Virus record (IMG/VR): IMGVR_UViG_3300025289_000028
Location: 5,342-69,341 of that record
Direction: 5' to 3' (one strand)
Origin: a virus
DNA: 64,000 bases
Position numbers and translations under genes: made by a program. Below, piece by piece: positions 5,321 through 63,409 of the stretch. Below the pieces are notes generated by a model. It ran no database searches. It was given only the letters and a program-made list of their open reading frames with translations, and had not been told where the DNA came from. Within the stretch, counting starts at the first letter, position 1. Every line of letters starts with the position of its first letter.

Positions 5321-5530
5321 ATGACAGACTACAGAAATTTATCAGACTGGGCAAAAGCCAAAGTAGATAAAACAATTGCCGAAGAAATTGAGCCCGGACC
5401 TCGCGAAAATAAACACAATGGTTTTAAATGGAATGAACCAGAATATACACTTAACAGAGTTCATAATGGTGATTATTGTTCAGAGTGCTGGATGATTTAC
5501 TATAACTGTTTATGCTCACATGATAACTAA
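5321..5530 (+). CDS. hypothetical protein (69 aa)
   Basis: ORF in packed array. Confidence 0.5.
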   Translation: MTDYRNLSDWAKAKVDKTIAEEIEPGPRENKHNGFKWNEPEYTLNRVHNGDYCSECWMIYYNCLCSHDN

Positions 5531-15189: not shown

Positions 15190-16176
15190 TTAAATCTGAA
15201 TATTTGGATATCTTCTTTTAAAATTTTCTTTTTGGTCTTCGTGCAATGGAGTAACCCTAAAATTAACCTGAGTAGCGAAATCTGGATATTTCAATAAAAC
15301 TTTATATAATTCATTTTCTGAAAAAAGGGTTGGTTTTTGGGAATATAATTGAATTATTTGATTTAAATTTAAGTCCTTAAGTTCAAAGTTAGCGTCAGGT
15401 CTATAAGTACTTGGCGAAAAAGAAATAACACCAACTTTAGGCTCGAGTAAAAAGTCCATTATCCTATCGTGATATTCTACTTTTGGTTTTGTATTTGCCC
15501 TTCCTCTTAGTTGAACTAAAACTCCATTAATTTTATTTACTTCTCCTGTTAGATATGGTTGACGATTTTTTCTAAATGAATACAATGTTCCACTTGCTCC
15601 AGCTTGTCCGCAATGTCCCATCGCATTAGCTTCAGCTCTACAATTTCCTGTTTGTAAATCAAGCCAATAAAATCCGTCTGGATATGTTTTAATTATTTTC
15701 CCACTTTCATCTGTAATTTGTTCTGCTTTTAATCTCTGTACTTTTTCGTGCCAGATATCTGCTCTTTGTACTGCCAGTTCAAATGTGAGAGTATTTAAAT
15801 TAATCTCATCAGTTTCTGGTGAAATTTCTCTTCTATTTTGAAGCCACGTAACAACTAATTGAAAAACTCCTTGAAAATATAATTTTTGTCTATTGAGTTG
15901 TATTTTTAAAGAAGATTGTGTTTTATCTCCTTTTAGCATTTTAATCATAATATTTGCAACTATTTCTTTGCCTCCAGAAATTCTTTTGACAGCCTCTTTT
16001 TTGAAGTTGTTTGCTATCCACAGCTGAAACTTCTCGTTGTAATCATTTGTGAGCCATTCAGAAATTTCAGAAGGAAGACCTATTTTATTTACTATAATAT
16101 CGGTATTTTTAGCCTCAGTTAATAAAATGCTTCTAATTTCTTTTATTAAGAGAGATATATTTTTATCTTTTTTCAT
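15190..16176 (-). CDS. hypothetical protein (328 aa); C-terminal domain shares M-x-H-C ... NG-x-L-x-QL+G blocks with the protein at 46101..48158 (possibly PcfJ-like)
   Basis: Long minus-strand ORF. The shared blocks are 'ANAMGHCGQ...NGVLVQLRGRAN' versus 'MLMNHCIYT...NGGLEFDQLKGYRN'. Confidence 0.6.
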   Translation of the reverse strand: MKKDKNISLLIKEIRSILLTEAKNTDIIVNKIGLPSEISEWLTNDYNEKFQLWIANNFKKEAVKRISGGKEIVANIMIKMLKGDKTQSSLKIQLNRQKLYFQGVFQLVVTWLQNRREISPETDEINLNTLTFELAVQRADIWHEKVQRLKAEQITDESGKIIKTYPDGFYWLDLQTGNCRAEANAMGHCGQAGASGTLYSFRKNRQPYLTGEVNKINGVLVQLRGRANTKPKVEYHDRIMDFLLEPKVGVISFSPSTYRPDANFELKDLNLNQIIQLYSQKPTLFSENELYKVLLKYPDFATQVNFRVTPLHEDQKENFKRRYPNIQI

Positions 16177-16226
16177 CTTAAATAAATAGGGTTGCTTTTT
16201 ATAAACAAATAGGTTAATTTTAAATT

Positions 16227-16379
16227 ATGAAAACAAAAAAACAAAGACGCGAAAGAGTTAATACAACAATTAAAGAAAGTACAATTGATAAATTTAATCA
16301 ATTTTGTGAGGATAATAATATTAACAAATCTAAATTAATAGAAAAACTTATTAAAGAACATATTTCTAACAATATGTGA
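16227..16379 (+). CDS. ribbon-helix-helix (CopG/Arc-like) small DNA-binding protein, 50 aa (not in ORF track)
   Basis: MKTKKQRRERVNTTIKESTIDKFNQFCEDNNINKSKLIEKLIKEHISNNM*: a basic N-terminus, a beta-strand, then two helices. Paralog of 16424..16573. Confidence 0.55.
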   Translation: MKTKKQRRERVNTTIKESTIDKFNQFCEDNNINKSKLIEKLIKEHISNNM

Positions 16380-16423
16380 GTTTTACTTTTTTAGTACCTA
16401 TTTAGTATTAAATAACAAATAAT

Positions 16424-16573
16424 ATGAAAACAGATAAAAGAGTACAATTTCCACTAACATTATCTAGTGAACTTAGAAAGGAGTTTGATAATTTTTGTGA
16501 AGAAAGAGCTATTAATAAATCACAATTAATAGAATGGTTAATATTGCAATACATTGGAAAAAATGAAAAATAA
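16424..16573 (+). CDS. ribbon-helix-helix (CopG/Arc-like) small DNA-binding protein, 49 aa (not in ORF track)
   Basis: MKTDKRVQFPLTLSSELRKEFDNFCEERAINKSQLIEWLILQYIGKNEK*: the classic RHH pattern. Overlaps the annotated start of the GIY-YIG gene. Confidence 0.55.
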   Translation: MKTDKRVQFPLTLSSELRKEFDNFCEERAINKSQLIEWLILQYIGKNEK

Positions 16574-17648
16574 AGAAAGAAAACCAATGGGTTATTGGAC
16601 AAAAGAAAATTGTGAGAAAGAAGCATTAAAATACAGCTCAAGAAGCAATTTTGAAAGAGGTTCAAATGGAGCTTATGATAAATCTTTAAAAAACAATTGG
16701 TTAAATGATATTTGTAAACATATGATTACTAAAAAGAAACCAAACGGATATTGGACAAAAGAAAAATGTTTAGAAGAGGCATTAAAATATAGAACAAAAA
16801 CAGATTTTGCGAAAAAATCCAGTGGAGCATATGATTCTGTTTATAGAAATAAATGGGTTGAAGAATGTTGTTCACATATGGAAATTCTTGGAGATTTATA
16901 TAAAAGACTTATTTATGTAGCTGTTTTTGCAGATAATCATATTTATGTTGGTTTAACTGGAAATCCAAATAAAAGATTTGATGAACATTTAACTGATAAT
17001 AGATGCATTGTTTATAAACACATTAATAGAACAGAGTTAAAACCAAAATTTATAAAATTAACAGATTATTTGGATAACGAAAATGCCTCAATACAGGAAG
17101 GTGTTTTTAAAGAAAAATATGAAAAAGAAGGATATGTTATTTTAAATATAGCAAAAACTGGTTCCCTTGGAAGTGCTCCAAGAAAATGGACAAAAGAAAA
17201 ATGTACAGAAGAAGCTAAAAAATACGAATCTCGTTCTGAATTTAAAATAAAAAATAATTCTGCATATAGTGCCGTCATAAGAAATAACTGGGGAGATGAT
17301 TGTTGTAAACACATGGTTAGACGTAAAAAACCAAATGGCTATTGGAATATTAAAGAAAATTGTATAAATGTAGCTCTTCAATGTGAAAGCAGAACAGAAT
17401 TTATTCAAAAATATCCACGAGCACATGATTATGCTTGTAAAAATAAATGGCTTGAAGAAATTTGTTCTCATATGAAATTACTGAAAGAAATTTGGACTTT
17501 TGAAAAAATTTACAATATTGCAAAAAATCATAAAACTCTTTTTGAATTCAGGACAAAGAACAAAAGAGACTATGAAATTTTACGTTCTAATTTAGAATGG
17601 AAAGAAAAAATTTATACAGAATTTGGTTGGAAATCTCGTAAAAAATAA
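16554..17648 (+). CDS. GIY-YIG homing-endonuclease-like protein with four tandem ~45-aa repeats
   Basis: Central 'LIYVAVFADNHIYVGLTGNPNKRFDEH' is a GIY-YIG catalytic motif. Flanking repeats follow (K/R)PNGYWTKE.C.EEA.KY..R.EF....SAY...RN.W.D..C.HM (x4). The true start may be the internal Met near 16584. Confidence 0.7.
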   Translation: MEKMKNKERKPMGYWTKENCEKEALKYSSRSNFERGSNGAYDKSLKNNWLNDICKHMITKKKPNGYWTKEKCLEEALKYRTKTDFAKKSSGAYDSVYRNKWVEECCSHMEILGDLYKRLIYVAVFADNHIYVGLTGNPNKRFDEHLTDNRCIVYKHINRTELKPKFIKLTDYLDNENASIQEGVFKEKYEKEGYVILNIAKTGSLGSAPRKWTKEKCTEEAKKYESRSEFKIKNNSAYSAVIRNNWGDDCCKHMVRRKKPNGYWNIKENCINVALQCESRTEFIQKYPRAHDYACKNKWLEEICSHMKLLKEIWTFEKIYNIAKNHKTLFEFRTKNKRDYEILRSNLEWKEKIYTEFGWKSRKK

Positions 17649-23563: not shown

Positions 23564-24307
23564 TTATTCAATTCTTGTTATATTTTTATTTTCATCAATT
23601 TCAAAAATCATAGGTTTATTTTGAATTTCATATCTAAGATTTAAAACAGATGCATTCACAAAATGAACTCCATCTATGAATTTATATCCGGCATGCTCGT
23701 GAATGTGTCCAAAACTTACAAGCTTCAAATTTTTCAATTCATATATCCTTTTTAGTAAATCTTTACATCCAACCTGTTCTCCTCTAATAGTAGAATCTAA
23801 AATAGAATAAGGTGGTCCATGAAGTATTAAGAATTCAACGTCATCAGGTATAGCATCCCAATATCTTTTTATCTTTTCTCCTCTATCAACATTAAACGCC
23901 CAATTATATCCAAAAGTAGGTTGAACTGGTTCTCCGTAAAATTTAATTCCATCAATAGTAACGCCTTGACTTTCAAGATAAATAATATTTGGATATTTTT
24001 TTAATAATTCTTGAGCTATGCTTCTTTTTTGTTCAAAAAGTCGGTCATGATTTCCTGGAACTAAAATCTTATGAGTATATGGAAGTTTTGAATACCATGC
24101 TAAAAAATTATCAATCTCATTTTCGCTTCCACTCATAGAAATATCTCCTGAACATATAATTACGTCGGCTTCTGCAGGTAAATAAACTCCAGAGATAATG
24201 TATTCTTTTACATATTCATCATCAAATTTCTCTCCTTGTTTAAGTATATATATTCCATTGTGCTTTGAGTGACTATCACTCATTAATACAATTTTGGTTT
24301 TTTTCAT
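23564..24307 (-). CDS. metallophosphoesterase (calcineurin-like phosphoesterase)
   Basis: Blocks GDISMSG, GNHD, ILHGPP and GHIHEH are the canonical MPP motifs. Confidence 0.8.
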   Translation of the reverse strand: MKKTKIVLMSDSHSKHNGIYILKQGEKFDDEYVKEYIISGVYLPAEADVIICSGDISMSGSENEIDNFLAWYSKLPYTHKILVPGNHDRLFEQKRSIAQELLKKYPNIIYLESQGVTIDGIKFYGEPVQPTFGYNWAFNVDRGEKIKRYWDAIPDDVEFLILHGPPYSILDSTIRGEQVGCKDLLKRIYELKNLKLVSFGHIHEHAGYKFIDGVHFVNASVLNLRYEIQNKPMIFEIDENKNITRIE

Positions 24308-36237: not shown

Positions 36238-36906
36238 ATGAAAAACAAGAACTTTTTATTATCATTTATTAGCAAATCAAAACTATTTTATTTTGATGAA
36301 AATGAACTTCAATTTAAAAGAACACATGGATTTTTTACTATGATTGTTTTATTTTGCTTAATTATAGCATTCGTATCTGGGGGTATTATTACAAAAGAAA
36401 CGGAGCTTGAAATGATGAATAAATATAGTGATAAAGAAAAAATGTTGATAATAAAAAATGGAGATAAATTTAGTGAAGAAAAATTAATACTTTTTCTTAA
36501 TGAGCTTAATGTGCCATTTCCAGAGATAATTTATTCTCAAGCAAGATTAGAAAGTGGAAACTTCAGCAGTAAATTGTTTTTTGAAAATAACAACATTTTT
36601 GGAATGAGGACAGTAAGTTCACGAGCTACACTACAGATAAAAACGCAAAACGGTTACGGTGTTTATAATTCCTGGAGACAATCTGTTGTTGATTATGTTT
36701 TATTTTCTTGTTGTTACCTGAGAGATTTAAAAACAAAAGAACAATATTATGATTATATCGAAAAAAATTATTCAGAAACAGTAGGATATTCAGATAGAGT
36801 TAAAAGCATTGAAAAAGAATATTTTAAAAAAATAAAAGGGCTAACCGGGAATAGTTATGAAATATATTCAAAACCGGTTGTTGGTGATTCGGTTGTTAAA
36901 AAATAA
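36238..36906 (+). CDS. peptidoglycan hydrolase, glucosaminidase (FlgJ-like) domain with N-terminal TM anchor. Candidate endolysin or virion lysin
   Basis: 'IYSQARLESGNFSS...NNNIFGMR' matches the glucosaminidase motif (aqAalESgwG.S...NNlFGik). Confidence 0.65.
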   Translation: MKNKNFLLSFISKSKLFYFDENELQFKRTHGFFTMIVLFCLIIAFVSGGIITKETELEMMNKYSDKEKMLIIKNGDKFSEEKLILFLNELNVPFPEIIYSQARLESGNFSSKLFFENNNIFGMRTVSSRATLQIKTQNGYGVYNSWRQSVVDYVLFSCCYLRDLKTKEQYYDYIEKNYSETVGYSDRVKSIEKEYFKKIKGLTGNSYEIYSKPVVGDSVVKK

Positions 36907-37181
36907 TGAAAAAAATTAATCACGATGAAATTTCAGTACTAAAACGTATAGTACTTATAGAAAAAAGTTATTATTTTAAAAAAGGTGATACCGTTAGAAT
37001 AAATACTAAAATTATAGAGCCTTATTATTATTGGCGTGAATTTAAAGAAAGTTTAGGGACTGTATTTTCCTGTGATAAAGAATGGAACGAAGTAACAATA
37101 TTATGGTTTACTACAAATGATAGAGTAGGATTACCGTCATTATGGGATTCTTTTAATTTAATTAGAGTTGATAAGGATTGA
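36906..37181 (+). CDS. hypothetical protein (91 aa); N-terminal ...LKRIVLIEK motif
   Basis: Last gene of the plus-strand array. Confidence 0.5.
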   Translation: MKKINHDEISVLKRIVLIEKSYYFKKGDTVRINTKIIEPYYYWREFKESLGTVFSCDKEWNEVTILWFTTNDRVGLPSLWDSFNLIRVDKD

Positions 37182-38285
37182 CTTTAAATAATCAGTCAAT
37201 ATAGTCTCAATGTTCTTAAAGTCCCAGTAAGGAATTCTTAATAATGGAATGTTATTGTTTTTGCAGTATTCGTTTTTTATTTGGTCGTTTAGTTGCCTTG
37301 CTTTAAATGTTTTTTCACCACCAAAGTATTTAAAAGCTTTAAAATGTTGAGCTCCATCAAATTCTACACAAGTATTATAATCTGGTAAATAAAAATCGAA
37401 AGGTAATTTAAAAACATTTTTACAATCATCAAAAGTTTTTTGATATGTAAATATTATATTTTTTTCTTCTAAAATTTTAGTAATTTTAATTTCTCCTTTT
37501 GAAAAATTTGAACACTTTGGACAACCATTTCCAAATAAATGCATTGCTGGCCTTTGTTTGAAAATACCATGTTTATTACAAATTATATCTACTTTTGTTT
37601 GGTTATTTACATATTTTACATTATCATAATTATAAGTATTTCCATGAACTTCAAAAGATTTTGCCAAAAATATTTCTTTAGTTCCAACATATCCACCACT
37701 ACATATGTCACATCCGCGTCCTCTTAAATGGTCTTTGGCTAATTGACTGAACTTTCCATGTTTATTACAAATTATTGTTACTTTATTATCATTTTTTGTG
37801 TATAAAACTTCAGAATAATCGTATTTATTATTATGTTTTTCATTAGATTTTTTTATAAAATCTTCTTTTGCATATTGATACGTTCCTGAACAATAAATAC
37901 AACCCCTTCCACTTAAATGACTATCAGGTCTTTGATTAAATTCTCCATGCTCTGGACAAATTATAATAATTGGTTGTTTATTATTTTTATATACCACTTT
38001 TGAATAATCGTATTTATTATCATGAACTTCATTTGATTTAATAATAAATGATTCTAAAGTATGTTTACTTGGTAATGTTCTTTCTCCTTCGTACATACAT
38101 TTCTTACAATTATATCCTTTCATGTGATTTCTTGGAGATTGTAAAAATTCGCCATGTTTCTCACATATAATTGTGGATTTTACTGAGGAATTAACATATT
38201 CAAATTTTGAATAATCGTACCTTTCTCCATGAATTTGTTTTGCATTAAAAATAAATTTTTCAATACTTATAGCTTTCCCACTCAT
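37158..38285 (-). CDS. Homing-endonuclease-like protein with 5 tandem Zn-ribbon modules and a C-terminal Vsr-like PD-(D/E)xK nuclease domain
   Basis: Repeats follow YDYSK(V/F)EY.N...K..IIC..HG.F.Q.P..H..G.GC..C. C-terminal 'LPFDFYLPDYNTCVEFDGAQHF' resembles the Vsr 'FVDGCFWH' core. Paralog of 52833..53987. Confidence 0.65.
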   Translation of the reverse strand: MSGKAISIEKFIFNAKQIHGERYDYSKFEYVNSSVKSTIICEKHGEFLQSPRNHMKGYNCKKCMYEGERTLPSKHTLESFIIKSNEVHDNKYDYSKVVYKNNKQPIIIICPEHGEFNQRPDSHLSGRGCIYCSGTYQYAKEDFIKKSNEKHNNKYDYSEVLYTKNDNKVTIICNKHGKFSQLAKDHLRGRGCDICSGGYVGTKEIFLAKSFEVHGNTYNYDNVKYVNNQTKVDIICNKHGIFKQRPAMHLFGNGCPKCSNFSKGEIKITKILEEKNIIFTYQKTFDDCKNVFKLPFDFYLPDYNTCVEFDGAQHFKAFKYFGGEKTFKARQLNDQIKNEYCKNNNIPLLRIPYWDFKNIETILTDYLKSILINSN

Positions 38286-38425
38286 TTTTTATTTTCTTTT
38301 TCAAAAAATTCTTTTAATAACTTTGCAATTAATGCCGATTGAGGAATTAAGCTTTCCTCGCTATATGAAGCAAGTTTTTCCAAAATTTCTTCTGGTAATG
38401 TGAATGTTTTAGTTTTCGTAGCCAT
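38282..38425 (-). CDS. ribbon-helix-helix small protein, 47 aa (not in ORF track), translationally coupled (ATGA) to the endonuclease gene
   Basis: MATKTKTFTLPEEILEKLASYSEESLIPQSALIAKLLKEFFEKENKK* shows the RHH beta-alpha-alpha pattern. Confidence 0.55.
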   Translation of the reverse strand: MATKTKTFTLPEEILEKLASYSEESLIPQSALIAKLLKEFFEKENKK

Positions 38426-38537
38426 TTTTAGTGTTTTGGTAATTATAAAACATTATTATTATATTGTAAAGTATTACTTATAATTATAAATAGTATAAAA
38501 AATTTTACATTCTAATAAAATGTATTACATTTGTAAA

Positions 38538-40925
38538 ATGGCAAAGAAAAAAATAGGTTCCGATAATCAGAAATACGTTATGGTGGTAGAGTCTCCATCA
38601 AAAATAAAAAAGATAAAAGAGATATTAAAAGAAATAGGATATCATAATTATGATTGTATAGCTTCGGTGGGACATATCTTGGAATTAGATAAAGGTGCAA
38701 AAGGAGTGGATAAAAAAAATAATTTTGAACCACATTACATTGTATCTGAAAGCAAGAAAGATGTTGTTAAAACATTAAAAGAATTTAAGAAAAATGGATA
38801 CGAATTTATTCTTGCTTCTGACTTAGACCGAGAAGGCTCATTTATAGCTCATTCAGTGGCTATAACTTTAGACCTTCCATTAGAAACAACTAAACGTGCT
38901 GTATTTAATGAGATAACAAAAACAGCAGTAAAAAACGCAATAGATAATCCTGGAATAATTGATAAAAATTTAACTAATTCTCAACAAGCAAGACGTGTTT
39001 TGGATAGAATTGTAGGGTTTGATTTAAGTGGGTTGCTCTGGAAAAAAGTAGCCCCTAATTTAAGTGCTGGAAGGGTGCAAAGTAGCTCCGTTAGACTGAT
39101 AGTTGAAAAAGAAAGGGAAATAAAATCTTTTGAATCGGATGTAGATTTTAAAACTACTGGAGCTTTTGAAACAAAAAAAAGAGTTTCAATAAAATCTATT
39201 TTAGATAAAAGATTTAAAGATAAGCAAACTGCACATAAATTTTTAAATGAATGTATTGGAAAAGAATTTATAGTTAACAATAAAGAAACAAAAATTGGAA
39301 AACGTACAGCTTCAGCACCATTTACAACAAGTACATTACAACAAACTGCTGGAAATAAATTAGGATTTAGCGTTAAAAGATGTATGGATACTGCTCAATC
39401 GCTTTTTTCCAAGGGGTTTATTTCTTATCACAGAACTGATTCTGTAATGCTTTCAGAAGATTCTATTAAAGAGATTTCCACACAAATAAAATCAAAATAC
39501 GGAGATAAATATTTATGCAACAAGCAATATAAGAACAAAAACAAAGGAAGTCAGGAAGCTCATGAAGGAATCCGTTGTTCTCATTTCGAACAAGAAACAA
39601 TATCTGGCTCTTCTGATGAAGTTAGACTTTATGATTTAATATATAAAAGAGCTTTGGCTTCACAAATGAGTGATGCAGTTACAGAACTTACAAAAATTAC
39701 TATTGGCACACAAAACATAAAAGAACAATTTGTAACTAAAGGGACAATTATAAAATTTGATGGGTTTTTAAAAGTATACAACGACACAGATGATAATAAA
39801 GAAGATAATGAAAATGAAGATAGTGATTCTAAAATCCTTCCACCTTTAGAAAAAGGTGATAAACTTTATTATAAAGAATTAGTTTCATCACAATCATTTT
39901 CAAAACCAGTACCAAGATTTAATGAACCTGGACTTGTTAAATCCATGGAGGAGCTTCAAATTGGCAGGCCATCAACCTACGCTACGATAATCCAAACAAT
40001 CCAAGACCGTGGATACGTTGAAAAAAAAGATATTGAACCAAAGGAACGTAAAATCCAAACATTAACTCTATCATCAACAAACAATAAAATAGAAGAAAGT
40101 GAAGTAATAGATAAATTTGGAGGAGAAAAAGGAAAATTAGTTCCAACAGAAGTTGCCGGAGTGGTAGTTGACTATCTAAAAAAACATTTCCCGGACATCA
40201 TGGATTATAAATTTACTGCAGAGACTGAAGAAAAACTTGATGAGATAGCAGAAGGAAATAAAGAGTGGCAACAGATGATTGGAGAGTTTTATGAACCATT
40301 CAGCAAGACATTAAAAGAAGCTGCAGGCGAAGAAGGAAAAGCCGGAATAAGAGAAATTGGCAAAGACCCAAAAACAGGCAAAATAATCTACGCTCGTTTA
40401 GGTAAATTCGGACCAATGATACAAATGGGAGAGAGTGTTGACAAAAAAAGTGATGAAGAAAAGCCAAAATTCGCCAAATTAAAAGAAGGACAAACAATAG
40501 AAAACATCACTATAGAAGAGGCATTAGAACTTCTTATATGGCCAAGAAATATGGGTAAACATAAAGGTGAAGACGTTTCAATTGCAATAGGACGCTTCGG
40601 CCCATACGTCAAAGTCGGTCAAATCTACAGTTCAATTTCTAAAGAAGAAGACCCTTCCACAATATCTTTAAAACGTGCAATAGAAATCTTTGAAGAGAAA
40701 AGTGCAGCAAAGAGTAGTAATACCATTAAAGAATTTAAAAAAGAAGGCATAAGCGTACTTAATGGTAAATTCGGAGCGTACATAAAATCTAAGACAGGCA
40801 ACCATAAAATTCCTCTAGGAAAAGAAGCTGATACTTTAACTTTAAAAGATTGTGAAGAAATTATTAAAGAATCTAAAAATTCACCGAAGAAGAAAAAATT
40901 CACTAAATTCAAAAAGAAAGAATAA
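38538..40925 (+). CDS. topA: DNA topoisomerase I (type IA)
   Basis: Toprim 'VMVVESPSKIKKI' and 'DLDREGS'. 'SAGRVQSSSVRLIVEKEREI' is a conserved TopA block. Active-site 'GFISYHRTDS'. C-terminal 'GRFGPYVKVG' and 'NGKFGAYIKSK' repeats. Start placed at MAKKK (38538); the ORF-track start is 38520. Confidence 0.9.
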   Translation: MAKKKIGSDNQKYVMVVESPSKIKKIKEILKEIGYHNYDCIASVGHILELDKGAKGVDKKNNFEPHYIVSESKKDVVKTLKEFKKNGYEFILASDLDREGSFIAHSVAITLDLPLETTKRAVFNEITKTAVKNAIDNPGIIDKNLTNSQQARRVLDRIVGFDLSGLLWKKVAPNLSAGRVQSSSVRLIVEKEREIKSFESDVDFKTTGAFETKKRVSIKSILDKRFKDKQTAHKFLNECIGKEFIVNNKETKIGKRTASAPFTTSTLQQTAGNKLGFSVKRCMDTAQSLFSKGFISYHRTDSVMLSEDSIKEISTQIKSKYGDKYLCNKQYKNKNKGSQEAHEGIRCSHFEQETISGSSDEVRLYDLIYKRALASQMSDAVTELTKITIGTQNIKEQFVTKGTIIKFDGFLKVYNDTDDNKEDNENEDSDSKILPPLEKGDKLYYKELVSSQSFSKPVPRFNEPGLVKSMEELQIGRPSTYATIIQTIQDRGYVEKKDIEPKERKIQTLTLSSTNNKIEESEVIDKFGGEKGKLVPTEVAGVVVDYLKKHFPDIMDYKFTAETEEKLDEIAEGNKEWQQMIGEFYEPFSKTLKEAAGEEGKAGIREIGKDPKTGKIIYARLGKFGPMIQMGESVDKKSDEEKPKFAKLKEGQTIENITIEEALELLIWPRNMGKHKGEDVSIAIGRFGPYVKVGQIYSSISKEEDPSTISLKRAIEIFEEKSAAKSSNTIKEFKKEGISVLNGKFGAYIKSKTGNHKIPLGKEADTLTLKDCEEIIKESKNSPKKKKFTKFKKKE

Positions 40926-52832: not shown

Positions 52833-53987
52833 TTACTCAATACAGTTGAATTCTTTCTCTAAAATTTCATTTATATTTTTCAAATTTAAATATGAAATTC
52901 TAATAAGTTTTATATTGTTATTTAAACAATATTTATTTTTTATGTTATCAGTTCTTTGTATATCCAAAAAATTTTTTTCTCCTCCAAATTTTTTGACTGA
53001 TTCAAAATGCTGTCTCCCATCAAATTCTATACAAGTATTGTATTTTGGTAAATAAAAATCAAATGGTAATTTATTTGATATTCCTATGCAATCATTAAAT
53101 TTATGTTGATGTATAAATTCGATGTTATTCTTTTTTAAAAATTCAATTATACCTTTTTCTCCCTTTGATATTTTTGAAAAATTACATTTTTTACATCCAT
53201 ATCCATTCAAATGTGAGCTTGGAGTTATTTGAAAATCTCCATGTAATGGACAAATTACTATTACCTTAGTTTTGTTTTGAACGTAGTTAACTTTTGAATA
53301 ATCGTATTTTGGTTCACATGTTTTTTCATTTATGTGTATAATTTTCGATTTTTCAATAAAATATTCAGAAGTATTAGCTCTTTTTAAGGAACTTTCTTCA
53401 AATCCGCAAAAAGGACATTGGTGTCCAGCTAAATGTTTATCTGGTGATTGCTCAAAAACACCATGTTTCTTACAAATTATCTTAACTTTAATTATAGAAT
53501 TAACATATTCAACTAACTCATAATTATATGTATATCCATAAATAATTATAGATTTTTCAATAAACTCTATCGTGTTTCTTAATGCGGTTCCGCCACACTT
53601 ACCACATCCATGCCCACCCAAATGACTTGCTGGAATTTGTTCAAAAACTCCATGATTATTACATATTATTTTAACTTTTGTATTATTGTTAAAATATTCT
53701 ACTAATGAATAATCATATATATTACTATGAACTTTGTTAGACTTTTCAATAAATTCTTCGGTTGTTAATTTTTTGAGTCCAGAACATTCAACACATCCAC
53801 AACCAGATAAATGATCATTTGGCGTTTGCTCAAAAACACCATGTTCTTTACAAATTATTTTAATCTTAGTTTTGCTATTTTTATATTCAACTAAACTGTA
53901 ATCATATTTTGATTCATTAGTTATTCTGTTTACATGTATAATTTTAGCTCTTTCAATAAACTCTTCTGTTGTTAATTTTTTTGACAT
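52833..53987 (-). CDS. Homing-endonuclease-like protein with tandem Zn-ribbon modules and a C-terminal Vsr-like PD-(D/E)xK domain (paralog of 37158..38285)
   Basis: Same repeat architecture. C-terminal 'LPFDFYLPKYNTCIEFDGRQHF...FGGEKNF...YCLNNNIKLIRI'. Confidence 0.65.
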   Translation of the reverse strand: MSKKLTTEEFIERAKIIHVNRITNESKYDYSLVEYKNSKTKIKIICKEHGVFEQTPNDHLSGCGCVECSGLKKLTTEEFIEKSNKVHSNIYDYSLVEYFNNNTKVKIICNNHGVFEQIPASHLGGHGCGKCGGTALRNTIEFIEKSIIIYGYTYNYELVEYVNSIIKVKIICKKHGVFEQSPDKHLAGHQCPFCGFEESSLKRANTSEYFIEKSKIIHINEKTCEPKYDYSKVNYVQNKTKVIVICPLHGDFQITPSSHLNGYGCKKCNFSKISKGEKGIIEFLKKNNIEFIHQHKFNDCIGISNKLPFDFYLPKYNTCIEFDGRQHFESVKKFGGEKNFLDIQRTDNIKNKYCLNNNIKLIRISYLNLKNINEILEKEFNCIE

Positions 53988-53988
53988 C

Positions 53989-54147
53989 TTAAATCTTCCC
54001 TTCTAAATCCATTTCCATAAGCTCTCGTATTCTCTTTGACATGTCAATGTCATTATTAATACAATGTTTTTTATAGTTTTTTCTTAATTCTTTTGAAACC
54101 ATGAAGTTTAATCTTACTTCATTTTGTTCTTCTTTTTTCTCTTTCAT
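53989..54147 (-). CDS. ribbon-helix-helix small protein, 52 aa (not in ORF track), immediately upstream of the endonuclease gene
   Basis: MKEKKEEQNEVRLNFMVSKELRKNYKKHCINNDIDMSKRIRELMEMDLEGKI*. Its stop lies 1 nt before the endonuclease ATG. Confidence 0.55.
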   Translation of the reverse strand: MKEKKEEQNEVRLNFMVSKELRKNYKKHCINNDIDMSKRIRELMEMDLEGKI

Positions 54148-54216
54148 ATCTGTAAGTTTTTAAGTAAATATATAAGAAAAAATAAAAAACGCAATATTTA
54201 TTATAAATTAACCACC

Positions 54217-54853: not shown

Positions 54854-55081
54854 TTACTTATATTTCTCAATTAAAACTACTCTTTCAAATGTGTTTAAAC
54901 AAATAGGACATCGTTTACAAAATGTTACATTTCCAGAAACACCATAATCAACACTTTCAATTGTGGAAACTTTTAAAACATTTGGATGTTTCCTACAATA
55001 AGGCTCGGAATGAAATTCTTTAAAAAACGATGCAAACATTGAATTATGTTCCTTTTTTAATTGTTCTAATAATTCAGACAT
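54854..55081 (-). CDS. small Zn-ribbon protein (75 aa); C-terminal ...FERVVLIEKYK*
   Basis: CRKH...CKRCPICLN cluster. Confidence 0.5.
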   Translation of the reverse strand: MSELLEQLKKEHNSMFASFFKEFHSEPYCRKHPNVLKVSTIESVDYGVSGNVTFCKRCPICLNTFERVVLIEKYK

Positions 55082-55863
55082 TAGATAGTCCTCCTTTTGC
55101 TCATTTCATAAAATTTCTCATCATTTTCAATCATTATCCAATTCCTTTTTAGCTCTTTGCTTGCTAAACCGGTTGTGCCACTGCCGGAACAATTGTCCAA
55201 AACTAAATCACCTTCATTGGTATATGTCTTAATGAAATACTTACACAACTCCAATGGTTTTTGGGTATCATGAATAAATTCTGTGTTTTTATTTTTTTGT
55301 TTATCAGAAGAAAATTTCAATACACTTCTTGGATATCTGTCGGTGTTTCCTCCACCAACAATTTCTTTATTTCCTTTACCATAAACTCTTGTCTTGTTTC
55401 CAATATCAATTTTCTTGGTAAATGAATTTACAGGTTTATGCCCGGTTGTTTTTTGTGGATTATATGTAGGAAGATTCTTATAGTATATCAAAATGTTTTC
55501 ATGCGATTTCATACACATCTTCTTTGCATTATAATGCCCAGTTGCATGTGTTTTTTCCCAAATCCATTCATATCTCAATAAAGGCAGGTTGCTGGCACCA
55601 AGAACTTTATCAAATGGTGTCTGAGCAAATAAAGCAATACAACCATTATCTTTAATAATACGTTCATATTGTTCCCATAATTTAGGAATGTCAATTATGG
55701 AATCCCATGGACATTGAGTAGTTTCTCAACCGAAGGGAAGGTCTGCAAAAATAAAATCTATGGATTTGTCCTGAATTAATTTCATAACCTCAAGGCAGTC
55801 TCCAAATAGAGTTTGATTAACAGATAACTTCCCTTCGGAATTATATTTTACATCTTCTATCAT
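55081..55863 (-). pseudogene. beta-class DNA methyltransferase (paralog of 1722..2525) interrupted by a single in-frame TGA at 55726..55728
   Basis: Minus-strand frame from ATG 55863 reads MIEDVKYNSEGK...IDFIFADLPFG*ETTQCPWD...DNCSGSGTTG.... It is open except for one TGA at codon 46. Motif IV is atypical (DLPF). ATGA coupling with the upstream gene. Confidence 0.6.
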
Positions 55864-56078
55864 TTTATTTCTTTCAATATCAAATGGTCAGTCCCTTCAA
55901 AACAAGCAACACCAGATTCAAATCTTGATGTGGATATTTTCTTTGTTCGGTTGGAATAAAACTTCCAATCGCACTTACTAAATTTTAAAACATGACAACC
56001 ATTTTCAGTTTTAACAAACTGAGCTACCAGCTTTTTACCATCTGGAACTTCGAATAGATAGGATTTACCTTTTTTCAT
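55860..56078 (-). CDS. hypothetical protein (72 aa)
   Basis: Minus-strand ORF. Confidence 0.45.
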   Translation of the reverse strand: MKKGKSYLFEVPDGKKLVAQFVKTENGCHVLKFSKCDWKFYSNRTKKISTSRFESGVACFEGTDHLILKEIK

Positions 56079-60467: not shown

Positions 60468-61610
60468 TTAATGCAATTCATCATATTCTCTAATGCGAGA
60501 ATAAACACCTTTTAAATGTTGTGTTTTTTCACTATCCGGCTCAGCTGATTTAACATTCTTAAGTTCTGTAATAGATTTCCTTTCTTCTTCTGTTAATGTC
60601 TTTGGAACAAAAATATTTACATAAACCATTTGATCGCCTCTTTGAGAAGGATTATTTATATTAGGAATTCCTTTACCTTTTAAACGTAGGATTTTGCCAG
60701 ACTCTGTTCCTGGCTCTATTTTGACTTTAACGTTTCCATCAACAGTATTTATTTCTAAAGAATCATTCCCAATCACAGCATCATAATAACTAATAAAAAC
60801 ATCAGTTAAAATATTATTGCCTTCTCTTTTAAAAATAGGATGTTCAATCTCTGTTATTTCAATAATAAGACTTCCGTTATTCCCTCCGCCTCTTGCTTCG
60901 TTTCCAACGTTATTAATGTTTAAATTTATTCCTTCTACTGCACCGGCTGGAATATCAAATTCTACTTCATCACTATTCGAAATCATCCCTTGTCCTTTAC
61001 AGGAATTGCATTTTTCTTTAATTTCTTTTCCTTCTCCACCACAATGCTGACAAGTGTATTGTTGAATCATCATTCCCATTTGCGTATTCTGTCTTATTGT
61101 AACAATACCAGTACCATCACATACACTGCATTTTACTATCGATTCTTTATTTTTAGCACCAGTTCCAGAACAGTCTGGACAATTTATTTCTCTTTGTAAT
61201 TTTACTTTTTTATGTGCACCTGTAATTAATTCATGAATAGTTAATGAAATTCTTATTTTTAAATCTCCACCTCTTCTAGTTTTTGTTTGTTGAGCATGTC
61301 TACTACTACCACCTCTAAACCCAAATGATTCAGCATGCCTTCTAAATAATTCATCCGCCATACTGTGAGGATTAAATCCAAAACCACCATCATTAAACAT
61401 GCCATCGTTTTCATATTTAGCTTTCTTTTCTGGGTTGGATAAAATATCATATGCGTTAGAAATTTTTTTAAAAGTATTTTCATCCCCACCCTTATCTGGG
61501 TGATGTTTTTTTACTAATTTTCTATAAGATTGTTTTATTTCTTCTTGAGATGCTGTTTTGTCTACTTCAAGAATATTATAGAGACTTTCTTTTTCAGACA
61601 TATTTTCCAA
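60468..61610 (-). CDS. dnaJ: molecular chaperone DnaJ (type I Hsp40)
   Basis: J-domain with the 'HHPDKGGD' HPD motif, a Gly/Phe region, four CxxCxGxG zinc-finger repeats and a C-terminal domain. Confidence 0.9.
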   Translation of the reverse strand: MENMSEKESLYNILEVDKTASQEEIKQSYRKLVKKHHPDKGGDENTFKKISNAYDILSNPEKKAKYENDGMFNDGGFGFNPHSMADELFRRHAESFGFRGGSSRHAQQTKTRRGGDLKIRISLTIHELITGAHKKVKLQREINCPDCSGTGAKNKESIVKCSVCDGTGIVTIRQNTQMGMMIQQYTCQHCGGEGKEIKEKCNSCKGQGMISNSDEVEFDIPAGAVEGINLNINNVGNEARGGGNNGSLIIEITEIEHPIFKREGNNILTDVFISYYDAVIGNDSLEINTVDGNVKVKIEPGTESGKILRLKGKGIPNINNPSQRGDQMVYVNIFVPKTLTEEERKSITELKNVKSAEPDSEKTQHLKGVYSRIREYDELH

Positions 61611-62686: not shown

Positions 62687-63409
62687 TTATTTTCTTTTTA
62701 TTAGAACTTCGTCAATTAATCCTTCTCCAACTGCTTGCTCTGCTGAAACCCAATAATCTTTTTGACATTTATTGAATATTGTTTCATAATCCTGTCCTGT
62801 ATTTTTAGAAAGTTTTTCATACAATCTTTTTTCCATTATTTGACATTGTTCATAACTTACTTTTAAATCTTTCATTTTTCCTTCAAATCCAGATGCTAAT
62901 TCGTGCATCATTATTCTTGAACTTGGTAATGCATATCTTTTACCTTTCGTCCCACTTGATAAAAGCATTGTACCCATACTTGCAACAACTCCCATTCCAA
63001 CCGTTTTAATATCACACGAAACAAGCTCGAATGTGTCTAAAATTGCGCTTCCTGAGTCAATTTCCCCGCCCGGACTCATGATATAAAATGTAATATCTTT
63101 TTTACCTTCAGTCATTTCTAAAAACAATATTTGTGCTATTGCAATATTAGAAGTTTCAGTAGTTACCGGATGGCAAAAATAGATTATTCTATCTTTTAAA
63201 AGACGAGAATACACATCATATGATATTAATTGTCCAGAACTTGATTCTTCTATTACACTTGGAGATAGATTTTTAATAGAATGGTCAATTAATTTGTTGG
63301 TCGAACTGGAGATTAGCTTTTTATTTATGTTGGCGCTTTTTCCTGCTATTTCAAATTTTTCAATAATGTTTTGCATATTATATTTTTTAGTTTGTTTATG
63401 TGTTGACAA
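62687..63409 (-). CDS. clpP: ATP-dependent Clp protease proteolytic subunit with a ~60-aa N-terminal extension
   Basis: 'IMSPGGEIDSGSAILDTF...GVVASMGTMLLSSGTKGKRYALPSSRIMMHE' gives the ClpP Ser-His-Asp triad context. Confidence 0.85.
   Translation of the reverse strand: MSTHKQTKKYNMQNIIEKFEIAGKSANINKKLISSSTNKLIDHSIKNLSPSVIEESSSGQLISYDVYSRLLKDRIIYFCHPVTTETSNIAIAQILFLEMTEGKKDITFYIMSPGGEIDSGSAILDTFELVSCDIKTVGMGVVASMGTMLLSSGTKGKRYALPSSRIMMHELASGFEGKMKDLKVSYEQCQIMEKRLYEKLSKNTGQDYETIFNKCQKDYWVSAEQAVGEGLIDEVLIKRK

Follow-up and report, generated by a model that had tools for sequence, protein, structure and literature searches.

We analyzed a 64,000-nt window (positions 5,342 to 69,341 of the IMG/VR virus record IMGVR_UViG_3300025289_000028) in which four very small genes, here named R1 to R4, lie directly ahead of three genes encoding homing-type nucleases. 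The small genes encode proteins of the ribbon-helix-helix (RHH) type, with R4 a probable member only. The window corresponds approximately to positions 365,004-429,003 of CACVIJ010000001.1 (503,412 bp; GCA_902731165.1), i.e., of a phage-like genome of ~500 kb, and has a GC content of 28.8%. Its gene content includes topoisomerase I, SSB, ClpP, DnaJ, RNase H and several DNA methylases. The RHH and nuclease genes form three modules (Table 1). R1 and R2 stand in tandem ahead of a GIY-YIG nuclease gene and diverge from a gene encoding a protein of 328 amino acids (aa) in module 1, R3 precedes nuclease 2 and diverges from the topoisomerase I gene in module 2, and R4 precedes nuclease 3 in module 3. 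All four open reading frames (ORFs; 47-52 codons) are present where a sequence-only reading of the window had placed them, and all four are called by gene callers in public assemblies.

Table 1. Features of the window (positions counted within the 64,000 nt) and, in the last two rows, of loci in related phages
Feature	Position	Strand	Basis or remark
R1, 50-aa RHH minigene, first cistron of module 1	16227..16379	+	PHROG 3180, Pfam RepB-RCR_reg
R2, 49-aa RHH minigene, 3' end overlapping the GIY-YIG start	16424..16573	+	PHROG 3180/582
GIY-YIG nuclease gene	16563..17648 (ORF opens at TTG 16554; likely start ATG 16563)	+	Pfam GIY-YIG, PHROG 20046
R3, 47-aa RHH minigene, ATGA overlap with nuclease 2	38282..38425	-	PHROG 3180, Pfam RHH_3
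Nuclease 2, 375 aa, Zn-finger repeats and C-terminal Vsr/I-Bth0305I-like domain	37158..38285	-	Pfam, PHROG, Foldseek
R4, 52-aa probable RHH minigene, 1 nt before the ATG of nuclease 3	53989..54147	-	Marginal paralogy, AlphaFold2 model
Nuclease 3, 384 aa, paralog of nuclease 2	52833..53987	-	48% identity
50-nt divergent intergenic region, 328-aa gene (15190-16176, -)/R1	16177..16226	.	
44-nt R1-R2 spacer, inverted TAAATAGG copy at 16397-16404 (-)	16380..16423	.	
94-nt divergent intergenic region, R3/topoisomerase I gene	38426..38519	.	
69-nt divergent intergenic region upstream of R4; neighboring + gene called from 54217	54148..54216	.	
LAGLIDADG two-motif gene, free-standing, 308 aa	61594-62520	-	Pfam LAGLIDADG_3 1.7e-7
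Split polymerase loci of related phages	L031 598-3895; L039 4001-6772; also L001, L044-L049		
TonB-dependent-receptor-type protein of phage relatives	L025 8072-10099; L068 1-1276; L069 1-827; L070 1-413		Plug and beta-barrel domains

Profile searches assign R1, R2 and R3 solidly to the RHH (CopG/Arc/MetJ) superfamily. All three match PHROG 3180 'Arc-like repressor' (E = 2.6e-9, 3.4e-4 and 1.9e-9, respectively), R1 scores 22.8 bits against Pfam RepB-RCR_reg (gathering threshold 21) and R3 scores 26 bits against Pfam RHH_3 (gathering threshold 21.6). R2, a paralog of R1 (7e-8), also matches PHROG 582 (6.2e-4) and, under threshold, Pfam RHH_1 and RHH_9. A family profile retrieved 101 database proteins, nearly all of 47-55 aa, with a common pattern of a basic N-terminus, an alternating-hydrophobic strand, helix A, an N-K/R-S turn and helix B. 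Searched against the PDB, a profile of 22 family sequences found CopG (3e-4; the alignment covers the whole 45-aa chain and profile positions 8-45), SvtR (9.5e-4) and the RHH domain of NikR (0.02). R1-R4 are genuine genes under purifying selection, as judged for R1-R3 from the ratio of nonsynonymous to synonymous substitution rates (dN/dS) against orthologs, which is 0.10 for R1 (against the related lineage L025), 0.15 for R2 and 0.07 for R3. Their shortness, the 29% GC of the DNA and the lack of a diverged homolog of R4 might suggest chance reading frames in AT-rich intergenic DNA, but dN/dS of 0.07-0.15, the beta-alpha-alpha pattern kept by ~100 homologs, the significant RHH profile matches and the retention in several lineages refute this for R1-R3 and leave it practically no probability overall.

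The evidence for R4 is of a different kind. R4 has no Pfam match and, taken alone, no significant match to RHH profiles, and no diverged homolog of it was found, but gene calling places it, at 52 aa, in 24 contigs. Reciprocal phmmer matches connect it marginally to R1 and R2 (2e-3 to 1e-2), and the best relevant PDB match of its sequence is a full-length alignment to SvtR (2kel) at E = 0.47. The AlphaFold2 (AF2) monomer model, with a mean predicted local distance difference test (pLDDT) score of 80.8, is extended over residues 1-18 and has helices at 19-31 and 36-49; the RHH strand forms in the dimer only. All 12 Foldseek matches of this model in the PDB are RHH-type proteins or close relatives, including Arc (1par), CopG, AmrZ and the RHH antitoxins TacA and VapB, at insignificant values (E 2-10). 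Thus the clear RHH/CopG pattern that the sequence-only reading had seen in all four peptides stands for R1-R3, on PHROG, Pfam and PDB profiles, and is unclear by profile methods for R4.

The product of the GIY-YIG gene scores 25.1 bits against Pfam PF01541 (gathering threshold 22.6; residues 120-194) and matches PHROG 20046 (9e-66), and its catalytic domain is flanked by repeated modules of ~45 aa. Nucleases 2 and 3 each carry 3-4 treble-clef Zn-finger (DUF4379/DUF723) repeats, with four stretches of nuclease 2 matching Pfam DUF4379 (4.7e-10), and both match PHROG 559/9084 'HNH/homing endonuclease'. Sequence searches of the nucleases against the PDB gave no match, and NCBIfam was uninformative. 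The AF2 model of the C-terminal 119 residues of nuclease 2 (257-375; pLDDT 95.7) retrieved I-Bth0305I (3r3p; E 6e-3, probability 1.00) as the top Foldseek match, along with Vsr (1cw0; template modeling score 0.71) and 3hrl. As modeled, this domain has a Vsr/I-Bth0305I-like fold, and nuclease 3 can be assigned to the same class through its paralogy with nuclease 2; the earlier 'Vsr-like' label was therefore right. Among 41 nuclease homologs, four residues (D41, E52, H58 and K81) never vary, and D54 and D78 hardly do, a conservation of D/E/H residues that is compatible with the E/D/H/D set of PMC3239194. Members of the Vsr-type family were found in 865 INPHARED phages, with single jumbo phages often carrying several copies, which fits selfish nuclease genes; the nucleases of the window are called 'homing' here by family membership and distribution only.

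Some further observations concern nucleases 2 and 3. The 3' end of nuclease 2 overlaps a convergent 91-aa gene (36906-37181) by 24 nt (37158-37181); the related lineage L028 has no 91-aa gene, and its nuclease gene overlaps a glucosaminidase gene by 11 nt instead. In one metagenomic strain, L060 (1429-2699), nuclease 3 is split into ORFs of 125 and 250 aa behind an intact 52-aa R4, probably by a frameshift or as a pseudogene.

Each of the four minigenes lies directly upstream of its nuclease unit and is co-oriented with it, so that the RHH gene is the promoter-proximal cistron, contiguous with the nuclease, and the same order is seen in relatives. The overlap of R2 with the GIY-YIG gene measures 11 nt for a translation start at ATG 16563 and 20 nt for a start at TTG 16554. 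R3 and nuclease 2 share an ATGA (junction -4 nt) and R4 stops 1 nt ahead of the nuclease 3 ATG (junction +1 nt), just as had been described from the letters of the sequence. Nucleases 2 and 3 are each anti-oriented to both of their flanking genes. R1-R4 are mutual best matches among the 458 ORFs of the window, with no fifth member, and none of 36 other small window ORFs matched an RHH/Arc PHROG. When 4 RHH and 4 nuclease genes were placed among 115 genes in 2,000,000 random gene orders, all four RHH genes led into a nuclease gene with a frequency of 5e-7. The arrangement is non-random, far beyond chance. The claim that such a minigene is paired with each free-standing homing endonuclease gene (HEG) was wrong, as the LAGLIDADG gene shows. 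This gene lies between clpP (62687-63409) and dnaJ (60468-61610), is co-oriented with both and overlaps dnaJ by 17 nt; two 'KW(T/S)xxE(I/D)D.L' repeats are seen in the N-terminal part of its product. An RHH leader at the head of every transcription unit was also considered and rejected, there being none at the divergent or reversed genes 15190-16176, 23564-24307 and 38520-40925.

The modules are conserved in syntenic homologs. Module 1, i.e., the 328-aa gene with divergent R1, R2 and GIY-YIG gene, is kept in three other lineages (L025, L072 and L075), and module 2 is kept in L028, where an R3 ortholog and a 247-aa Vsr-type nuclease gene lie between the topoisomerase I and glucosaminidase genes. 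The start/stop overlaps are maintained across lineages. Three more distant lineages (L068, L069 and L070) keep the 328-aa gene (53-63% identity) and lack R1, R2 and the GIY-YIG gene altogether; a small upstream ORF in L069, tried as an RHH gene, proved to be the N-terminal piece of a split 328-aa homolog. The pairing also recurs in other large phages with another RHH subfamily (54 aa, 'KTSNRSNYLDW'), whose genes immediately precede those of Vsr-type nucleases (235-443 aa) in 10 further distinct loci, at a distance of -1 to +3 nt and once of 86 nt. At these loci, a second RHH subfamily diverges from the first at a distance of ~105 nt and stands just ahead of the gene for an N-terminal fragment of a family-B DNA polymerase (polB), and in relatives RHH minigenes of the same family head other operons as well. 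In L039, a 48-aa RHH gene heads a reverse-oriented DUF7487/Zn-finger gene inserted after the polymerase fragment. Judging from these contexts, RHH minigenes serve this phage clade as operon leaders, with nuclease genes as a very frequent but not exclusive use. The conserved RHH-endonuclease pairing proposed by the sequence-only reading is thus real in that it is kept in syntenic relatives and recurs, but it is not universal in either direction.

The polB gene itself looks split in these related large phages (Table 1), with an N-terminal fragment of ~495 aa that ends after motif A. A DUF7487/Zn-finger gene then follows the polymerase fragment in either orientation; its RHH leader is present when the gene is reversed (L039), and there is none when it is co-oriented (L031).

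The two parts of the units differ strongly in conservation. The RHH genes are the best conserved genes of their neighborhoods (77-86% identity, compared to 46-72% for the flanks and 46-51% for the nucleases). When the window is compared with L028, identity amounts to 77% for R3, 71% for topoisomerase I and 46% for the nuclease; in the comparison with L025, it is 78% for R1, 86% for R2, 66-76% for the flanking proteins and 51% for the GIY-YIG protein. The L028 nuclease is 46% identical to its positional counterpart in the window and 44-48% identical to unrelated copies, and it differs in repeat number and length (247 aa vs 375 aa). Additionally, one nuclease family stands behind three RHH subfamilies that are undetectable from each other by BLAST. 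Given the difference in identity, and given that the L028 nuclease is as distant from its counterpart as from other copies, the RHH leader is the stable and strongly selected part, behind which the nuclease diverges fast or is replaced. The idea of a 'cassette' in the sense of a simple co-mobile module is not borne out by these identities.

The same observations would also fit a history in which the RHH genes are resident regulators of the phage backbone, located at the promoters of topoisomerase I, polB and the 328-aa gene, and nucleases have repeatedly inserted or been replaced downstream of them. The pairing would then reflect an insertion-site preference, either because the position provides expression or because the RHH/promoter DNA is the homing target. 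The far better conservation of the RHH genes than of the nucleases behind them, the L028 nuclease, and the single nuclease family behind three very different RHH subfamilies all fit this history, as do the family members heading polB and other operons and the location of all RHH genes in divergent promoter regions adjoining conserved genes. On the other side, R1, R2 and the GIY-YIG gene are missing as a set from L068-L070, where no RHH gene remains at the site, the R1/R2, R3, R4 and 'SNRSNYLDW' loci all have a downstream nuclease wherever sequence is available, and the start/stop overlaps are kept across lineages. We consider such a landing-pad history rather unlikely, though it carries some weight; it is compatible with repression of the unit by the RHH protein, and differs mainly in the evolutionary history it assumes. 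A more speculative proposal, which we regard as doubtful, is that the RHH gene and its promoter form a conserved 'expression dock', possibly itself a homing target, behind which homing nucleases (GIY-YIG, Vsr-like with varying repeat number, DUF7487) are exchanged. The RHH paralogs would then be a dedicated set of repressors, insulated from one another, that times nuclease expression and links it, via the shared divergent promoters, to the essential replication genes for topoisomerase I and DNA polymerase.

All three modules start in short divergent intergenic regions (50, 94 and 69 nt), and modules 2 and 3 need their own promoters because they are anti-oriented to both neighbors. The region upstream of R1 contains a conserved block, AATAAATAGG(G/T)TT(G/A)CTTTT, which includes TAAATAGG at 16183-16190; the block is kept in five lineages, in which coding DNA is only ~86% identical. 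TAAATAGG is conserved in relatives and occurs twice in the window, upstream of R1 and upstream of R2, with the two copies inverted to each other. In the R1-R2 spacer, ACCTATTTA is kept in three of four lineages. The TAAATAGG-containing block is a candidate promoter or operator. Upstream of R3, the sigma70-like site that ranks best in the region (TTTACA-17-TATAAT, 38470->38442, minus strand) lies 16 nt from the gene, and an imperfect palindrome, TATTTATAA/TTATAAGTA (~38473-38494), abuts its -35 element; together they represent a candidate operator/promoter. No consensus promoter or repeat was found in the region upstream of R4. At the 10 recurrent loci, a conserved promoter-like element, TTGACT-17-TAcAAT, lies just upstream of the nuclease-leading RHH gene. 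Just upstream of its -35 element, an inverted repeat of the form xxAT-AAA-ATxx was seen (L001 1753-1861 and 8 other loci), whose outer positions co-vary (CTAT/ATAG, TGAT/ATCA, AGAT/ATCT) in 6 of the 9 loci and which is absent or unclear in the other 3; this repeat may be an operator.

Overall, we favor as the probable explanation that R1-R4 are CopG/Arc-type leaders of short units that end in a homing-type nuclease gene and are controlled by autorepression and translational coupling. The RHH dimer would bind its own promoter region and shut the unit off after a brief burst, following the model of CopG in copG-repB and of Arc in arc-ant. The overlapping or abutting stop and start codons suggest translational coupling of the kind proposed for nrdA/mobE in T4-type phages; nuclease translation would be tied to RHH translation, at a lower level, which would restrict the amount of nuclease made. 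Repression and coupling together would hold a potentially genome-damaging nuclease at low and transient levels. Since the same type of leader also serves non-nuclease operons such as that of DNA polymerase B, R1-R4 may represent a general operon-leader repressor of which nuclease genes are very frequent users. Binding and repression of their own promoters by the RHH proteins is what we infer from the analogies with CopG/copG-repB, Arc/arc-ant and the Arc of IS605-family elements. The earlier suggestion of autoregulation, or of a repressor that keeps endonuclease expression low, is reasonable by family and architecture, but the 'autoregulated mobile module' as a simple cassette is not.

Several observations weigh against the autorepressed-leader explanation. 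The same Vsr-type nuclease is found without an RHH gene at ~15 other IMG/VR phage loci, some of them in divergent contexts with their own promoter, and since the family is usually without RHH in other phages, the leader is not required. The LAGLIDADG gene of the window likewise has no RHH leader, and the two tandem RHH genes of module 1 are unexplained by simple autoregulation. The fold assignment of R4 is marginal, R4 being missed by a family hidden Markov model built without it (E = 2.1). As to regulatory DNA, an AAATAGG direct repeat upstream of R1 was rejected as an operator, its second copy not being conserved in L025; no motif is common to the upstream regions of all three modules, and the repeats seen are short, AT-rich and weak. 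Scans of sigma70-type promoters and terminators gave counts not above those of shuffled controls.

Two other roles for the RHH proteins need to be considered. They could neutralize the nuclease by direct binding, like the antitoxins ParD, CcdA, FitA and TacA, with the complex repressing the operon. The gene order, a small RHH gene first and overlapping a larger enzyme gene, is that of type II toxin-antitoxin operons, and there are weak profile or fold matches to the HicB-like, BrnA, TacA and VapB RHH antitoxins. However, an RHH domain takes up ~45 aa (profile positions 8-45), so that in proteins of 47-52 aa at most 5-8 residues are left and there is no C-terminal toxin-binding extension. As the peptides do not exceed an RHH domain in size, R1-R4 would most simply be pure DNA binders. 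The best profile matches are to repressors (Arc-like, CopG, SvtR) and not to antitoxins, and RHH genes of this type are also seen ahead of a DNA polymerase gene. The proteins encoded downstream do not belong to a known toxin family; they are homing-type nucleases (GIY-YIG, or Zn fingers with a Vsr-like domain) whose own DNA-binding regions consist of several repeats, as is typical of site-specific homing enzymes. A toxin-antitoxin-like function is thus quite improbable. It is no more plausible that the RHH protein covers the nuclease site, or a related one, in the phage's own genome and thereby blocks self-cleavage, or that it redirects the nuclease, a role that would agree circumstantially with the tight one-to-one pairing and a distinct RHH paralog for each nuclease. 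Homing nucleases normally escape self-cleavage because their site is lost by insertion or polymorphism (PMC2988022), RHH genes also head non-nuclease genes, and there are no known target sites; we consider self-protection or altered specificity very improbable.

As regards the genomic setting, no close relatives were found in INPHARED by megablast or by tblastn with R1, and a search for related loci in IMG/VR with topoisomerase I as a single protein found none. MT835665, the best INPHARED match of topoisomerase I, was discarded as a synteny reference, being a Bacteroidetes-like bacterial fragment. The topoisomerase I of the window is closest (44%) to a Bacteroidetes-like sequence, and the module genes are not preceded by Shine-Dalgarno sequences. 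In phage relatives, a protein of ~675 aa with a Plug domain and a TonB-dependent-receptor beta-barrel is encoded a few kb from the module 1 site (Table 1); at the corresponding position of the window there is no ORF of comparable length. The TonB-receptor gene, the lack of Shine-Dalgarno sequences, the 29% GC and the topoisomerase I similarity point to a host among the Bacteroidota. Next to module 3, an N6/N4 DNA methylase gene (54854-56078, minus strand) looks fragmented: its 165-aa ORF (55081-55578) aligns only to positions 78-220 of a 221-position profile, and two separate small window ORFs, not individually identified, match DNA-methyltransferase PHROGs. This methylase gene may be split or frameshifted.

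Free-standing HEGs are abundant in large phages, where they shape phage-phage competition and recombination boundaries, and their harmless expression has been explained mainly in T4, by self-repression of the enzyme and by RNA hairpins. If the proposed mechanism is true, a separate and strongly conserved repressor gene for ~50 residues, with the nuclease gene coupled to it, would add a third solution, of a modular kind, parallel to the one very recently demonstrated for IS605 transposons. It would also provide an annotation rule, namely to seek sub-threshold RHH minigenes upstream of the nuclease genes of huge phages. The conserved leader next to a fast-evolving nuclease offers a handle on HEG turnover. 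If there is no repression, the finding would be a correct, ordinary annotation of four missed small regulator genes.

Among known systems, CopG (RepA) of plasmid pMV158 (PDB 1b01/2cpg) represses its own copG-repB promoter. Like R1-R4 it is a minimal RHH protein (45 aa) encoded by a first cistron and co-transcribed with the gene of a DNA-cleaving enzyme, and it ranks first among the PDB profile matches of the RHH family (full-length), with low sequence identity. It differs in that RepB is a plasmid replication-initiator nickase and the enzymes here are phage homing-type nucleases, with operator binding predicted. Arc of phage P22, a 53-aa RHH protein, shuts its own operon off after a burst; CopG and Arc are both autoregulating first cistrons. 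The arc-ant operon, with its divergent mnt, resembles the modules as an RHH gene heading a phage operon from a divergent promoter region, but its downstream gene encodes an antirepressor instead of a nuclease. Nothing here points to an Mnt-like partner, although two divergent RHH genes do occur in relatives. SvtR of the archaeal virus SIRV1 (2kel) is a 56-aa viral RHH repressor and the second-best PDB profile match. Unlike R1-R4, it comes from an archaeal virus, where it regulates viral structural genes globally, and it is not coupled in an operon to a nuclease.

I-Bth0305I, of the 'EDxHD' family (PMC3239194; 3r3p), shares the catalytic fold predicted for nuclease 2 and is also free-standing in phages. 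No RHH partner is reported for it, and its N-terminus is of the NUMOD/helix-turn-helix type, whereas nuclease 2 has treble-clef Zn fingers instead and no intron or intein is present. Phage HEGs need tight control, as is seen in the autorepression of I-TevI and in the start-stop overlap that couples nrdA and mobE (PMC2988022). Own-promoter repression and coupling by overlap are two of the layers proposed here, but in T4 it is the endonuclease itself that represses, or RNA hairpins that act, and no separate dedicated repressor gene is described there. A close parallel, on a level with the CopG/Arc-type autoregulated operons, is the Arc RHH protein encoded by IS605-family elements, which binds an intergenic, often bidirectional promoter and represses tnpA/tnpB (bioRxiv 10.64898/2026.09.24.754181). 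Arc homologs adjacent to homing endonuclease genes are noted by Moon et al. in the same study, and in the literature we found, the link between RHH proteins and free-standing phage homing nucleases is mentioned only in this passing way. The IS605 elements are bacterial insertion sequences with TnpA and an RNA-guided TnpB, whereas the modules described here belong to a huge phage and carry protein-only GIY-YIG and Vsr-like nucleases, behind an RHH gene that forms the upstream cistron, is predicted to be translationally coupled, and surpasses in conservation the nuclease it precedes.

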